This document shows, piece by piece, positions 44,099-55,149 of a stretch of 64,000 nucleotides of DNA. Source of the DNA: an uncultured Candidatus Saccharibacteria bacterium. Its GTDB lineage: Bacteria; Patescibacteriota; Minisyncoccia; Phycocordibacterales; UBA12088. Numbering within the stretch: the first letter of the stretch is position 1; the number at the start of each line of letters is the position of its first letter. Location of the stretch: NCBI GenBank assembly GCA_964411375.1, contig CAYPKR010000001.1:238807-302806 (forward strand). Direction: 5' to 3'. The notes beneath the pieces are model-generated. The model made no database searches. It saw nothing but the letters and a program-made list of their open reading frames with translations, and was not told where the DNA came from. The position numbers and the translations under genes are program-made.

Positions 44099-44149
44099 CT
44101 ATAGGGTAACGTGTTGCCAAATTTGCTTCAAGGGGAGTTGTTCAGTGAG

Positions 44150-44315
44150 AGGTTTGAGGGAGTTTGGTCACAGATAATTTTGCTTCGCAACATCTCCGCG
44201 ACCCCGCCTCAAGAAAAGTCCCCCGGACTTTTCTTTCCGGCTTTCAATACCACCGGAGCTTTCTATCTCCACAAGAAAAATAAAAACGCCTTCCTAGGCG
44301 TTTTTATTTTTCTTG
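44150..44315. repeat. tRNA-3'-flank element copy C (downstream of tmRNA) with the 44-nt core cgaccccgcctcaagaaaagtcccccggacttttctttccggct
   Basis: ~86% identical to the copy A core, with compensatory changes in the hairpin; begins ttggtcacag like the other copies. Confidence 0.55.
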
Positions 44316-44705
44316 TGGAGATGGGGGGATTGAACCCCCGTCCGAAACGGGGCAGGGTTGCGTTCTACAAAGCGTATTCTACTTTATTCCTTTAGGCCGG
44401 TATGGTCGAAGTAGACCAAATGCATACCGAACCGATCTCCTTATTTAACGGGTGTGCCGGAGCATTCACACACGCGAATCCGAATTATATTACACCAGCT
44501 CTAACCTATCGGATGAAGGAAAGAGGGATGCGCTTATGCAGTTGCGTAAGCGAACGCGAAGTCGTTCATCTGGAAAGGAGATAAAACTGACTTTGCGCGT
44601 GCGAGAGTATTCTTTGCACTTATTGGTTCCAGTTTTTTAGGAAGGACTGGGCTTCCGCTTCGCTCGCAGACTCTACGGAACCGAATCGTCGAAACTGACA
44701 TCCCC
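44316..44705 (-). ncRNA. ssrA: tmRNA (SsrA), CCA not encoded; 3' end embedded in a 24-bp hairpin (44262-44322)
   Basis: 5' GGGGATGTCAGTTTCGACG..., tRNA-like acceptor with G3-U70 wobble, T-arm GGGGGTTCAATCCCCC, ~390 nt; adjacent to smpB. Confidence 0.8.
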
Positions 44706-46996: not shown

Positions 46997-48151
46997 ATGA
47001 AATACACCCTTCGCATTGTTGCATGTTTTGCACTGATGTTTGGTTTCGGTTTATCCGCAAATGCCGCCACTATCTCAGCAGGAGAGCACTATACGCTCGC
47101 AAATGATCAGCATATTACCGGTAACGTATATGCTGCCGGAAAAGATGTCTCGATTCTTGGAAGTGTGCTTGGAGACACGGTTCTCGGTGGAAATAAAATT
47201 CTGGTTAACGGTGCAGTCGTTGGCGATGTACTTGCTGGTGGAAGCACGATTGATATTCTCTCGCCAATTTCTGGAGACGCGCGAGTCGCAGGCGGCACTA
47301 TAACAATTGGTAATACCATAAACGGCGACGTCGTAATTGTTGGTGGCACGGTGCATCTTCTTGCGGGTTCGGTAGTTCGAGGAGATGTGCTTATCGCTGG
47401 AGGAAATATCGCGCTTGATGGTGCTGTTGATGGCAATGTCAAAGTAGCCGGCGGTTCGATTTCACTCGAAGGTCCAGTTAAAGGGAATGTTGATGTGAAG
47501 GCAGGGCAAAGTCTCAAATTTGGAACAACAGGAACTATCGGCGGATATTTCCATTATCGCGCTCCAGAAGAACTCACGATTCGAGACGGCGCAGTTCGTG
47601 GAGAGGTGAAATATGACGCGCCTGCAGCTCCGAAGAAAGGTGCACCTGCAATTCTTGCCGTTATCCTCGGTGCATTCTTCCTCATGATGCTGGGCGGACT
47701 GGGTCTTTCAAGTATTATCGCCGTTCTCGCATTTCCTGCATGTACACACATCATTATGGAGCGAGGAGTTACTCGCTTTGGAAGCACCTTTCTTATTGGA
47801 TTTGCAGTGTTAGTTGCAACACCAGTTCTTGCGGTCGTCGCTATGGTGACCTTGGTTGGATTACTGCCAGGATCGATACTCCTCCTTGCCTACATCGCAC
47901 TCCTTATCGTTGCAAAAATATATGCGGGTATCTTAGTTGGTGCATTCCTTTCTAACTGGTGGAAGAAAGAAATTCGAACCAACTGGAAATGGGCGCTTCT
48001 CGGTACATTTGTTCTTGCACTAATCAGCGTGGTTCCAGTTCTTGGCGGACTAGCATCCTTCCTCTTCTTCACTGCCTCTCTCGGCGCACTCTCTGTAAAA
48101 GGATATTTGTGGTGGAAAACCAGGAATAGTCATCACGAATCGTCTATATAA
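46997..48151 (+). CDS. Signal peptide plus bactofilin-like (polymer-forming beta-helix) repeat domain fused to a C-terminal polytopic membrane domain
   Basis: 384 aa; repeated G-x-V-x-GDV / GG-x-I motifs over ~150 aa, then ~5 TM segments. Confidence 0.5.
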   Translation: MKYTLRIVACFALMFGFGLSANAATISAGEHYTLANDQHITGNVYAAGKDVSILGSVLGDTVLGGNKILVNGAVVGDVLAGGSTIDILSPISGDARVAGGTITIGNTINGDVVIVGGTVHLLAGSVVRGDVLIAGGNIALDGAVDGNVKVAGGSISLEGPVKGNVDVKAGQSLKFGTTGTIGGYFHYRAPEELTIRDGAVRGEVKYDAPAAPKKGAPAILAVILGAFFLMMLGGLGLSSIIAVLAFPACTHIIMERGVTRFGSTFLIGFAVLVATPVLAVVAMVTLVGLLPGSILLLAYIALLIVAKIYAGILVGAFLSNWWKKEIRTNWKWALLGTFVLALISVVPVLGGLASFLFFTASLGALSVKGYLWWKTRNSHHESSI

Positions 48152-48165
48152 GAAATCCTAGAGGT

Positions 48166-48212
48166 CAAAAACATAATTGCCGCCAAAAAATTGGCGGCAA
48201 TTATGTTTTTGA
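48166..48212 (+). terminator. Intrinsic terminator: 19-bp stem caaaaacataattgccgcc/ggcggcaattatgtttttg
   Basis: Perfect inverted repeat just after the stop at 48151, T-rich 3' side. Confidence 0.6.
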
Positions 48213-53115: not shown

Positions 53116-55149
53116 CTACACTCCAAGTACCACCGGAATCACAATTGGATGTTTATTGGTCTTTTGGAAGAGGAATGAGCCAACTGAGTCGGTCAAATTC
53201 TTCTTCACGTAGTCGAAGTTGATTGGATTCATTCCTTCAGTCACATCTTCAACCGCTTTCTTTGCGAGGAGGCGAGTCTGTTGAAGCAAATCTTGTGATT
53301 CACGAAGATAAATGAAGCCGCGGGAAATTATATCTGGCGATTTCTTGAGTTTCCCAGTCTTGAGATTCACCATTGCGATGATGACGAACATTCCGTCTTC
53401 AGCGAGTACTTGGCGATCTCGGATCACCACCTCTTGCATGTCACCGACTGAGAAACCATCCACCATGCGGATATTTGATGGCGCTTTTTCCTTAAGGACG
53501 ACAATCTTCGCTCCTTCATCCTGAATTTCAATCACACTGCCGTTATCTGGCACGATGATATTTTCTTTTGGCGTTCCCATTTGGAAGGCGAGATCTGCGT
53601 GGAGTTTGAGTCGATAATGATTGCCGTGAACGGGTACGAAAAACTTCGGCTTGATTTTTTTATGGAGCCATTCGATTTCACCGCGATTTCCGTGTCCGGT
53701 TGAGTGAATATAGACTTCGCTCGTTCGGTAGTGGACGATGCGCGCGCCTTGGCGAGCAAGATTGTCTTTGAGTTTTTCAACCGATTTTTCATTTCCTGGA
53801 ATGATTGAAGAAGAGAGAAGCACGGTGTCGCCTTCTTTTATTGCGAGCATCTTATGCTGCTTGTTTGCCATGCGCATGAGCGCCGCAAACTCTTCACCTT
53901 GAGCACCGGTTGCAAGCACCACGACTTTATCCGGCGGATAATTATCAACTTCGCTTGAGGAAATGATCGTGCCGCGCTTCGGCTTGAATATGCCGGCAAG
54001 TTCTGCAATCTCGATATTTGTTTTCATCGAACGGCCTTCGAGCGCAAGCTTCTTGTCGTATTTCTCAATAATTTTGATGATACCGATTATGCGCTCGAGT
54101 TGGGATGCAAAAGTGCCGATGATGAGGCGACCTTTGATATCGCGAATGATTTTGTCGAGATTTTCATTGACCATCCATTCCGGCGTTGAAAAACCTGGAT
54201 TTTCAATGTTGGTCGAATCACACATCATGAGAAGTACATTCTCATCTTTGAATTTTGCGTATTCTTTTTCTTCTGCTTCTGCAGGAACGCCGTCAGTGTG
54301 ATTGAGTTTATAGTCGCCTGGAGTCACGACAGCGCCGTAGGGAGTATCAACAATGACACCCATCGAATCAGGAACCGTGTGGGTAACGGAGAAGAATCGG
54401 AGTTTGAGTCCACCTAAAGTGATACGTTCATTTTTTTCGACAACGCGAAGGTCAAGCGGGGTGAGGTGAGGAAATTCTGCCTGACGCTTTTTGACCATGA
54501 TCGCGGTCAGGTTTCTTGTATAAATCGGTGGATTACCGATTAAATCCATGATGTAGGGAATACCGCCGATGTGATCGAGGTGCGCGTGCGTAATAACCAT
54601 CGCGCGAATTTTTTCCTTATTGTCCTCGAGGTACTTGGTGTTTGGCAAAATGTAATCGATGCCAGGCGTTTCGTCTTCCTTGAATTGGAAACCGCAGTCG
54701 ATAACGACAATGTCATCTTTGTACTGGACTGCCGTCATGTTGCGTCCGATTTCTTCAACGCCACCAAGTGGAATGATTCGAACTGAATCTCCGATTGGCG
54801 GAATTGGTGCACCGGTATCTTCTCGCGTATTCACATAGGTATGTGAAGTTTGCTCCATTCGATGTGGTGGGCGATGTGATCTGCCGCCACGGGGTGATCC
54901 GCCGCGATAGCCGCCAGAATTTCTTCCGTGAGAATTCCCGCGCGAATCGTTTCTCGGTCCGTTATTTCGATTGAACGGTCTCGAACTTCGTGGAGGACGA
55001 TTACTTGGTGAAGAAATGGAAGGTGTGCCGTGATCTCTTGTGGCAGGTGAAACGCCGTCGCCACTTTGTGGGCGCGGAGTGTCATTTCTGCGGAAGCTGC
55101 GGATAGAGCGACGTGGGCCGCTACCAGCTCTGTGTTGTCTTTCCATCAT
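53116..55149 (-). CDS. rnj: Ribonuclease J (MBL/beta-CASP) with ~110-aa Arg/Gly/Ser-rich N-terminal extension
   Basis: 677 aa; HAHLDH motif, beta-CASP and C-terminal domain; disordered RG-rich N-terminal tail. Confidence 0.85.
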   Translation of the reverse strand: MMERQHRAGSGPRRSIRSFRRNDTPRPQSGDGVSPATRDHGTPSISSPSNRPPRSSRPFNRNNGPRNDSRGNSHGRNSGGYRGGSPRGGRSHRPPHRMEQTSHTYVNTREDTGAPIPPIGDSVRIIPLGGVEEIGRNMTAVQYKDDIVVIDCGFQFKEDETPGIDYILPNTKYLEDNKEKIRAMVITHAHLDHIGGIPYIMDLIGNPPIYTRNLTAIMVKKRQAEFPHLTPLDLRVVEKNERITLGGLKLRFFSVTHTVPDSMGVIVDTPYGAVVTPGDYKLNHTDGVPAEAEEKEYAKFKDENVLLMMCDSTNIENPGFSTPEWMVNENLDKIIRDIKGRLIIGTFASQLERIIGIIKIIEKYDKKLALEGRSMKTNIEIAELAGIFKPKRGTIISSSEVDNYPPDKVVVLATGAQGEEFAALMRMANKQHKMLAIKEGDTVLLSSSIIPGNEKSVEKLKDNLARQGARIVHYRTSEVYIHSTGHGNRGEIEWLHKKIKPKFFVPVHGNHYRLKLHADLAFQMGTPKENIIVPDNGSVIEIQDEGAKIVVLKEKAPSNIRMVDGFSVGDMQEVVIRDRQVLAEDGMFVIIAMVNLKTGKLKKSPDIISRGFIYLRESQDLLQQTRLLAKKAVEDVTEGMNPINFDYVKKNLTDSVGSFLFQKTNKHPIVIPVVLGV

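Follow-up and report, generated by a model that had tools for sequence, protein, structure and literature searches.

Folded elements behind tRNA and tmRNA genes of Patescibacteria, possibly mobile as a structured single strand

Here I describe a family of small structured elements that lies directly behind transfer RNA (tRNA) and transfer-messenger RNA (tmRNA) genes of Patescibacteria, taking as the point of departure a 64,000-nucleotide (nt) stretch of an uncultured Candidatus Saccharibacteria bacterium (GenBank assembly GCA_964411375.1, contig CAYPKR010000001.1, positions 238,807 to 302,806), which as a whole is called the window. Two copies in it, elements A and C, resemble each other over ~90 nt, and each follows a tRNA-like gene directly on the 3' side, in the orientation of that gene, A behind tRNA-Thr(CGU) and C behind the tmRNA gene. 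The core of the element is a three-way junction of ~100 nt whose structure is under selection, and on its two sides stand copies of the 3' end of the neighbouring gene itself, one inverted and one direct. With a probability that I would put at about 0.5, this is a non-autonomous mobile element that is recognised as a folded single strand, the enzyme being encoded elsewhere. The family is apparently undescribed: full-text literature searches found no description of the element, the nearest paper dealing with patescibacterial tRNA group I introns at position 35/36 (PMC13011429), and the core has no Rfam 15 family, in that searches of the window at gathering scores, of eight loci at E <= 1 and of the window's element regions at E <= 10 gave only sub-threshold matches to generic-hairpin and microRNA models.

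The case for the fold is carried by an alignment (A2) of 26 copies, taken on the tRNA-sense strand, with the consensus structure computed by RNAalifold. That consensus holds 32 base pairs, 21 of them with compensatory double changes; 95.8% of the cells are paired, compared with 79.1 ± 0.9% after shuffling of the columns (none of 500 shuffles attains the observed value), the covariation score is 0.433 versus 0.164 in shuffles, and when the structure is shifted by 1-3 columns the pairing falls to just 29-46%. There are 64 G·U combinations against 9 A·C, one G·U being shared by each of the 26 copies, and it is this excess that identifies the folded strand as the sense strand of the tRNA gene. Copies that were outside model building fold on their own into the same three-way junction. 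From 5' to 3' the core consists of UCGAAAG, hairpin I, GG, hairpin II and GA; the start of hairpin I is 7 nt away from the 5' junction, and hairpin II stops 2 nt short of the 3' one. In hairpin I a 3-bp base that covaries is followed by a conserved internal loop (5'-G-GA / 5'-GA), interpreted here as a bulged G with tandem G·A pairs, and by a variable apex; the base of hairpin II is the near-invariant GGUCGCG/CGUGACC with the fixed G·U; and the third part of the junction is a T-stem-like helix formed by the two flanking gene copies, the inverted one (S') and the direct one (S).

A preliminary description of the window had drawn attention to the apex of hairpin I, where a T to C and an A to G change between A and C appeared to be paired so as to preserve a hairpin, and had argued from this for selection on secondary structure rather than on primary sequence. 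The paired change is real. The 44-mers concerned (2168-2211 in A, 44199-44242 in C, each unique in the window) mismatch at 7 of 44 positions (14, 15, 23, 27, 35, 36 and 44), and positions 23 and 27, which are 2190/2194 in A and 44221/44225 in C, close an 8-bp stem over a 3-nt loop, as T·A in the one copy and as C·G in the other (stem 2183-2190/2194-2201 in A; in C the minus-strand stem-loop 44214-44232, stem 44214-44221/44225-44232, reading AAAAGTCC CCC GGACTTTT on the plus strand). On its own, the comparison of A with C is suggestive only, a simple substitution simulation of these two copies giving P ~0.018 that all 8 pairs survive and that one or more of them has changed on both sides. It is because of the family alignment, and not the A/C pair alone, that structural selection on this hairpin is solid: over 26 and later 36 copies from many genomes the apex varies freely in sequence and length and yet always pairs. 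A third variant of the A/C apex subtype, AAAAGCUCU-GGG-AGAGCUUUU, occurs in a relative (locus L026; collected loci carry L numbers throughout).

The family extends well beyond this one genome. An exact scan for a 21-mer of hairpin II, with one genome per species over 185,579 species, returned 25 stretches, 24 of them in Patescibacteria (Parcubacteria, Moranbacteria, Paceibacterota, Nomurabacteria and Saccharibacteria); the remaining match, on a Bacteroidetes contig, has flanks unlike the element and was taken as chance. In 22 of the 24 the 21-mer lies 140-330 nt 3' of a tRNA gene or, in L016, of the tmRNA gene, always in the same relative orientation, the other 2 being cut by contig ends. The tRNA isotypes beside the 21-mer are Arg, Leu, Gln, Ser, Gly, Val, Pro and Phe, and altogether the same core occurs at at least 13 isoacceptor types plus tmRNA. 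A covariance model of the element, R1, finds more than 30 copies in the fetched loci, including copies outside its training set, with a best E of 1e-32, and in a census 38 of 88 tRNA/tmRNA genes with usable flanks carry a type 1/2 core signature within 400 nt, while several further genes have perfect direct repeats around other core types. One of these other types found at the same junction, type X, ends in GUAC(U/C)G, followed by a UGUAA-loop hairpin and then ...GA, and its members include elements B and D of the window, L038, L085 and L087.

These figures also dispose of the plainest explanation, namely that ordinary intrinsic terminators behind stable-RNA genes resemble each other by chance. 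One could cite for it the canonical terminator sequence at the centre of a 27-bp stem behind the tmRNA gene, the similar palindromes elsewhere in the window (5934-5978 and 48165-48212) and the A/C comparison, whose P is only ~0.02; the exact 21-mer in 24 Patescibacteria contigs, where I estimate ~1 chance match for the collection, the covariance-model matches down to E = 1e-32 and a covariation far above both controls refute it. The two palindromes, which stand behind protein genes (5934-5978 behind a release-factor gene, 48165-48212 behind the open reading frame (ORF) 46997-48151), are perfect stems of 21 bp and 22 bp with loops of 3-4 nt, and this genome seems in general to favour very long, perfect hairpins as terminators.

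Every copy stands at a tRNA-derived junction, and the unit has a constant order. Reading 5' to 3' on the sense strand, the gene is followed by a trailer, a segment S'acc, usually an extra hairpin, a segment S'T, the core and S. The trailer is either a terminator hairpin or the conserved linker AUGAACGCAGUGAAUG; S'acc is the Watson-Crick complement of the acceptor 3' strand and S'T the complement of positions 59-65; the extra hairpin has the loop (A/C)CUGC(U/G); and S is a direct copy, 16-19 nt long, of the neighbour gene from tRNA position 59 on, as seen in L002, L004, L009, L013, L018, L019 and L023 and, with 16/16 matches, in element A. The core is joined to these gene copies at a T-loop-like junction, the left one being TCGA in most copies and GA in those at tRNA-Leu and tRNA-Ser, and most copies have ...CGA at both junctions. 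Where the inverted copy is exact, perfect palindromes of 26-29 bp result (window, L017, L020, L022, L028, L057, L087 and L098), and at tmRNA genes palindromes made of gene 3' end, trailer and S'acc occur in L016, L028, L057, L087, L093 and L098. The units come in two states: in one the distal copy is perfect over 16-19 nt and S'acc is poor, and in the other S'acc makes a perfect palindrome and the distal copy is shortened to 3-8 nt.

Behind tRNA-Thr(CGU) (2257-2330, minus strand), core A with its flanks covers 2123-2225 (minus strand; R1 73 bits, E = 9e-18), with hairpin I at 2175-2210, its apical stem-loop at 2183-2201 and hairpin II at 2134-2172, and directly distal to the core comes a copy of the gene's 3' end (2116-2131, minus strand) that is 16/16 identical to 2256-2271. 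Element C (core with 9-nt flanks 44155-44256, minus strand; R1 63.4 bits, E = 4e-15) has S'T at 44248-44254, the junction UUGAAAG at 44241-44247, hairpin I at 44206-44241 and hairpin II at 44166-44203, and ends in a degenerate direct copy of the tmRNA 3' end (~44146-44163, minus strand); both A and C are within the R1 training alignment. Just the 5' half of an extra hairpin is left in C (AGAAAGCUCC, 44255-44264). Hairpins of the form RAAAG(Y)YCY-GGN-RGR(R)CUUUY turn up as the apex of hairpin I (A, C and L026b) and also as the extra hairpin between S'acc and S'T (element B and L038), and the hairpin modules look interchangeable. One of the latter, GGAAGTCC-TCC-GGACTTCC beside tRNA-Met (4846-4864), had been a candidate third homologue of the A/C apex and was excluded from the covariation evidence on account of its other position in the unit. 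In several lineages the terminator hairpin is replaced by a conserved linker of ~16 nt, AUGAAC(G/A)(C/A)AGUGAAUG, which separates the element from the 3' end of the tRNA gene and recurs past the distal copy (L002, L007, L008, L014, L019, L021 and L025). At L024, 7870-8000, an insert of ~80 nt with its own GAAGCAGTTC-loop hairpin splits a type 1 core just past hairpin II on the displayed strand, which suggests nested insertion of a hairpin module; and at L106 (~4960-5142, minus strand) the 3' part of a tRNA-Ile(GAU) gene, from anticodon arm to CCA, recurs ~90 nt behind the gene, which may reflect a partial duplication in tandem or else an interrupted gene.

In several respects the copies behave like mobile DNA. 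Tandem arrays occur in L008, L010, L017 (3-4 units), L018, L022 and L026; at an orthologous tRNA-Ser locus L026 has one extra gene-proximal unit that L015 is without, and this newest unit carries an inverted copy, CUGGGAU, that is mismatched to the tRNA while the gene's 3' end is intact; and in truncated remnants it is the core's 3' end that survives (window 4677-4745 and 4034-4077; L016, L020 and L081). The core at tRNA-Gly in L013 and that at tRNA-Val in L017 are identical at 98 of 98 positions, with S'T, S, extra hairpin and trailer all different and the flanks fitting each unit's own gene, and an identity of 90-95% is reached by many pairs of cores from different isotypes and from lineages as far apart as Saccharibacteria and Nomurabacteria. 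Cores are thus exchanged independently of their flanks, and a moving unit made of trailer, S' and core was rejected on the strength of the L013/L017 pair; a two-ended transposon with target-site duplication was likewise set aside, the 5' end of such an insert (the trailer) not being conserved.

An intact gene with a distal 3' repeat and accretion are textbook signatures of tRNA-targeting integrases, and tycheposons reportedly display them. The units could accordingly be scars of integrase-mediated integration, that is attL/attR remnants of prophages or islands whose interior was deleted, as in tycheposon arrays and cis-mobilisable elements (CIMEs), and they do show an intact gene, a partial direct repeat of 16-19 nt running from the T-loop to the 3' end, and new units next to the gene with older, decayed units farther out. 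I nevertheless hold such an origin to be decidedly improbable, since random deletions would yield neither a uniform ~100-nt module in which 21 pairs are compensatory and G·U is specific to one strand, nor one and the same core at so many isoacceptor types and at tmRNA, since no integrase or cargo was seen in the scanned neighbours and no phage or plasmid counterpart in the collections searched, and since the mismatched inverted copy of the newest L026 unit, next to an intact gene, argues against an element that supplies the 3' end. A phage or plasmid origin was looked for directly: exact-pattern scans of IMG/VR gave one chance match in an AT-rich coding region, and blastn of the full unit against phages and plasmids gave none. 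Among known RNA entities, a group I intron in the T-loop does not fit a core of ~100 nt with two hairpins (P1-P9 require at least ~200 nt), an absent Rfam intron match and an intact neighbour gene, and small self-cleaving ribozymes (hammerhead, twister, pistol, hatchet, HDV-like) gave no Rfam matches at permissive E-values, CUGAUGA being missing from the consensus. A tRNA-primed retroelement, suggested by analogy with a primer-binding site bounded at A58, was rejected as well: the copies carry the genomic CAA, CA or CC and the inverted copy complements CAA, so mature tRNA, which would have given CCA, was not the template, and a precursor RNA could still have been.

The more serious competitor is a host or domesticated RNA. 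In that account the trailer of the tRNA or tmRNA would give rise to a structured tRNA-like RNA, in which S' and S form acceptor- and T-stem-like helices for RNase P, RNase Z, the CCA-adding enzyme or another tRNA-binding protein, and in which the core is functional. The sense-strand fold, with its invariant G·U, putative tandem G·A loop and kept UUCGA T-loop motif, suits this account, as does the extra hairpin, which in many copies falls exactly where tRNA nucleotides 8-48 would be; L004 and L025 lack a terminator before the element and have one past the distal copy, and the divergence of the orthologues L003 and L025 keeps the structure. Yet a complete minihelix is exceptional, because units with a perfect distal copy often have a poorly complementary acceptor-like 5' strand (2-5 mismatches in 9) and those with a perfect inverted copy have a distal strand of 3-8 nt; a strong putative terminator separates gene and element at element C, L013, L017, L020 and L022; copies decay, form arrays and are missing from most relatives; and the tmRNA-linked copies have A3-U70 instead of G3·U70 and so would be no alanine acceptors. 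Weakened by the exceptional acceptor helix, the frequent terminators, the decay and the patchy presence, this account is unlikely, while remaining the main rival.

A mobile element recognised as a folded single strand is therefore the reading that I prefer, at the even odds given above. Hairpins I and II would be the recognition structures, presented in single-stranded form as RNA or single-stranded DNA; an enzyme encoded elsewhere would move or exchange the module into the T-loop/3'-end region of tRNA-like genes; and an intact 3' end would remain beside the gene during the move. The insert, 120-220 nt long, has no ORF. A hint of single-stranded DNA comes from the apices of hairpin I, which on the sense strand are often GCGAAGC or CGAAG, an unusually stable DNA mini-hairpin motif.

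Several points weigh against this reading. No mobilising enzyme was identified among the scanned window and flanking proteins: Pfam scans of 30 window proteins brought up no integrase, transposase or reverse transcriptase, and none is found among the 25 top families listed of those common to at least 2 of the 128 element-flanking ORFs, which are housekeeping families. Neither excised forms nor empty S'T-TCGA-S_T hairpins were found in ~0.56 Mb of loci. Identical cores at different tRNAs could have arisen by gene conversion among resident copies instead of transposition, and the matching of S' to each new tRNA is not accounted for by any standard transposition or integration chemistry. The orthologues L003 and L025, between tRNA-Leu and tRNA-Val, differ mainly in ways that preserve pairing via G·U, a pattern that fits a resident function as well as a selfish element, and the G·A loop together with the kept UUCGA pentanucleotide of the T-loop hints at RNA. 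Finally, loci L002-L026 were collected by the element's own motif, which biases the occupancy figures for them, those of the census included, just the set of loci anchored on SmpB being unbiased.

A bolder variant would have the core act as scaffold of a self-retargeting RNA or DNA module, with S' (complementary) and S (identical) serving as guides or as a mimic of a tRNA minihelix, so that the module homes to the T-loop/3' end of any tRNA-like gene while regenerating that gene; I regard this as doubtful, and speculative at present.

Now considering that element C stands behind the tmRNA gene, the family also accounts for a long stem at this gene's 3' end, which the preliminary description had treated as a lock on the acceptor strand. 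The gene (44313-44705, minus strand) is found by ARAGORN, together with a tag peptide, and matches Rfam RF00023 in full length (model positions 1-374; 104.2 bits, where the gathering score is 47), the match covering 44313-44705 only and not the flanking element. Its acceptor stem is GGGGAUG/CAUCUCC with G3·U70, the 3' strand lying at 44317-44323 (minus strand) and the discriminator at A44316; CAA follows, so that CCA is not encoded, and that 3' trimming and CCA addition are needed, as had been claimed, follows simply from this and is ordinary. The perfect stem was correctly seen, only its size was not: it has 27 bp and a 4-nt loop (arms 44265-44291 and 44296-44322, 100% complementary) in place of 24 bp and a 6-nt loop. 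It takes in 6 of the 7 acceptor 3'-strand bases and has, as RNA, a folding energy of -51.8 kcal/mol (z = -11 against shuffles).

Three parts make up this stem: the end of the tmRNA gene, a putative bidirectional terminator and the inverted copy of that gene's 3' end. In its outer 11 bp the gene's end (AUCUCCACAAG) pairs with its own inverted copy, S'acc of element C (44265-44275, minus strand; sense CUUGUGGAGAU), the Watson-Crick inverse of the acceptor 3' strand plus CAAG, a module that recurs in the six other loci with palindromes at tmRNA genes listed above (L016, L028, L057, L087, L093 and L098). In these tmRNA-linked copies S'acc is UGGAGAUG, with A and not G opposite U70, which marks S' as an inverted copy of the 3' strand rather than a copy of the real 5' strand. 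At the centre of the stem I read by eye a putative intrinsic-terminator core (44282-44305, minus strand: A-tract, CGCCU/AGGCG stem, U-tract, UUUUUAUUUUU), which would be a canonical intrinsic terminator and which a terminator scan did not report because its T-run lies inside the 27-bp stem. Should it work, transcription would probably stop in most cases short of the distal arm, the terminator being embedded in the stem itself. The 27-bp lock is, then, the gene's 3' end and putative terminator pairing with the S' segment of the element.

The same point emerges from relatives. Through an SmpB anchor, and so independently of the element, 80 loci were gathered, 9 of which contain R1 cores, and in 24 of them the 3' flank of the tmRNA gene is readable. 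Element and stem extension occur in ~7 of these 24 (L028, L057, L087, L093, L098 and others), the extension appearing just where the element is present, and ~15 of the 24 have a plain terminator, no hairpin or the next gene's promoter. Confined in this way to element-bearing smpB-ssrA loci, the 27-bp stem is not a conserved feature of tmRNA processing, and as a general mechanism its use in tmRNA 3' maturation is unsupported. Regarding the processing enzymes, a gene for RNase J (beta-CASP and C-terminal domains) lies at 53116-55149, and neither RNase Z nor a CCA-adding enzyme is among the 30 largest window proteins, from which alone the genome-wide 3'-processing repertoire is not judgeable. Many tRNA and tmRNA genes of Patescibacteria have CAA, or CA, CAC or CAT, in place of CCA (L002-L026 and L028-L099), and some relatives encode CCA (L057, L081, L093 and L098), which looks like a recurrently degenerate CCA position. 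The tag peptides predicted by ARAGORN are unusually long (27 residues in the window, 44534-44705) and end in ...SP(Y/F)...FA(F/Y)A.A, and in most related smpB loci ARAGORN misses the tmRNA gene.

Elements or their decayed relatives occupy 4 of the 6 tRNA-like genes in the window. Behind tRNA-Met (4891-4965), element B (4677-4899, minus strand) gives R1 a weak partial match of 15.9 bits and comprises a type X core (4742-4845) and nested 3'-end remnants of older cores (4677-4745); its inverted repeat, read from the sequence, is 4866-4880/4884-4899 (15 bp, one bulge) and includes the acceptor 3' strand of tRNA-Met. The region after this gene has the 21-mer used for the species scan, TCGGTCAC[A/T]AGTAAATTTCCT, in common with element A. 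Element D, behind tRNA-Asp (4251-4325), has the same layout as A to C (4034-4259, minus strand), with a type X core at 4078-4180, an older remnant at 4034-4077 and an inverted repeat, 4198-4226/4231-4259 (29 nt, 79%), that includes the acceptor 3' strand of tRNA-Asp. The 3' end is locked in this manner at 3 of the 6 tRNA-like genes (tRNA-Asp, tRNA-Met and tmRNA). Over 107-4965 a protein gene on the same strand comes after each of four occupied tRNA-like genes (a PrkA-like kinase, a beta-lactamase-family protein and two small membrane proteins), and in L015 a perfect TTGACT-17-TATAAT promoter begins right behind the element, from which it follows that the elements sit between stable-RNA genes and the next promoter.

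If the preferred reading is true, Patescibacteria, whose tiny genomes are thought to be poor in mobile DNA, carry widespread structure-defined elements that colonise the T-loop/3' end, the one feature common to all tRNAs and tmRNA, and spare the gene in doing so. The family would offer a clean, covariation-rich candidate for a new recognition system of RNA or single-stranded DNA, and a marker of horizontal exchange among distant patescibacterial lineages; it explains the very long palindromes at many tRNA and tmRNA 3' ends, with consequences for tRNA annotation, for models of 3' processing and for assembly; and it makes one question concrete, namely which enzyme recognises the three-way-junction fold.

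How, then, does the family compare with systems already described? With the integrative elements that target tRNA and tmRNA genes (tyrosine-integrase islands, tycheposons and CIME remnants) it shares the site from T-loop to 3' end, the intact gene, the distal partial repeat and the tandem accretion with older remnants farther away; it departs from them in its size of 100-200 nt, in having no integrase or cargo found, in the single core family at at least 13 isoacceptor types, in the additional inverted copy of the 3' end, and in strand-specific covarying hairpins for which a double-stranded att site has no need. Like the miniature derivatives of IS200/IS605 (PATEs) and REP/RAYT it is small, non-coding and multi-copy, has subterminal hairpins on one strand that tolerate G·T, lacks terminal inverted repeats of its own and has ends set by short motifs, here ...CGA; unlike them, no Y1/HUH transposase was seen in the proteins scanned here, insertion is just at the tRNA-derived junction and not at every TCGA, the left junction at tRNA-Leu and tRNA-Ser is GA and not TCGA, and what flanks the element is the target itself, copied once inverted and once direct. 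The integron attC site and the CTX phage attP(+) used by XerCD likewise conserve structure over sequence and have one active strand, a likeness of architecture alone, and integration of the CTX type leaves direct, inverted and direct sites, with ~90 nt between the first two, which is topologically the S / S' / S seen here; the target in the present case is the T-arm/3' end of a tRNA and not attI or dif, no recombinase was identified, and there is no cassette or phage genome.

On the RNA side, tRNA-like and trailer RNAs (3'ETS-leuZ, mascRNA and bacterial YrlA) share the position in a tRNA 3' trailer, helices that mimic acceptor and T-arm, and a loop starting with UUCGA, whereas the helices here copy the neighbour's 3' end, the acceptor helix is often missing, and the units are multi-copy, arrayed and decaying. 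The omega-RNAs of TnpB and IscB also have a scaffold of ~100 nt followed by 16-19 nt of flanking target, and the corresponding target in the intact gene is preceded by a fixed TTCGA; here there is no adjacent TnpB or IscB gene and no Rfam match to an omega-RNA or HEARO, and the guide would match a resident essential tRNA gene. A self-retargeting module would share with omega-RNAs the logic of taking a guide from the flank, aimed in this case at the universal top half of tRNA and with no linked nuclease gene, and I treat the resemblance as a lead. By analogy, the closest mechanistic relatives may be the IS200/IS605 miniature elements, integron attC and the folded CTX attP, so that the family could prove to be a variant of known small structure-defined mobile elements, or categorically new if its flank segments act as guides.

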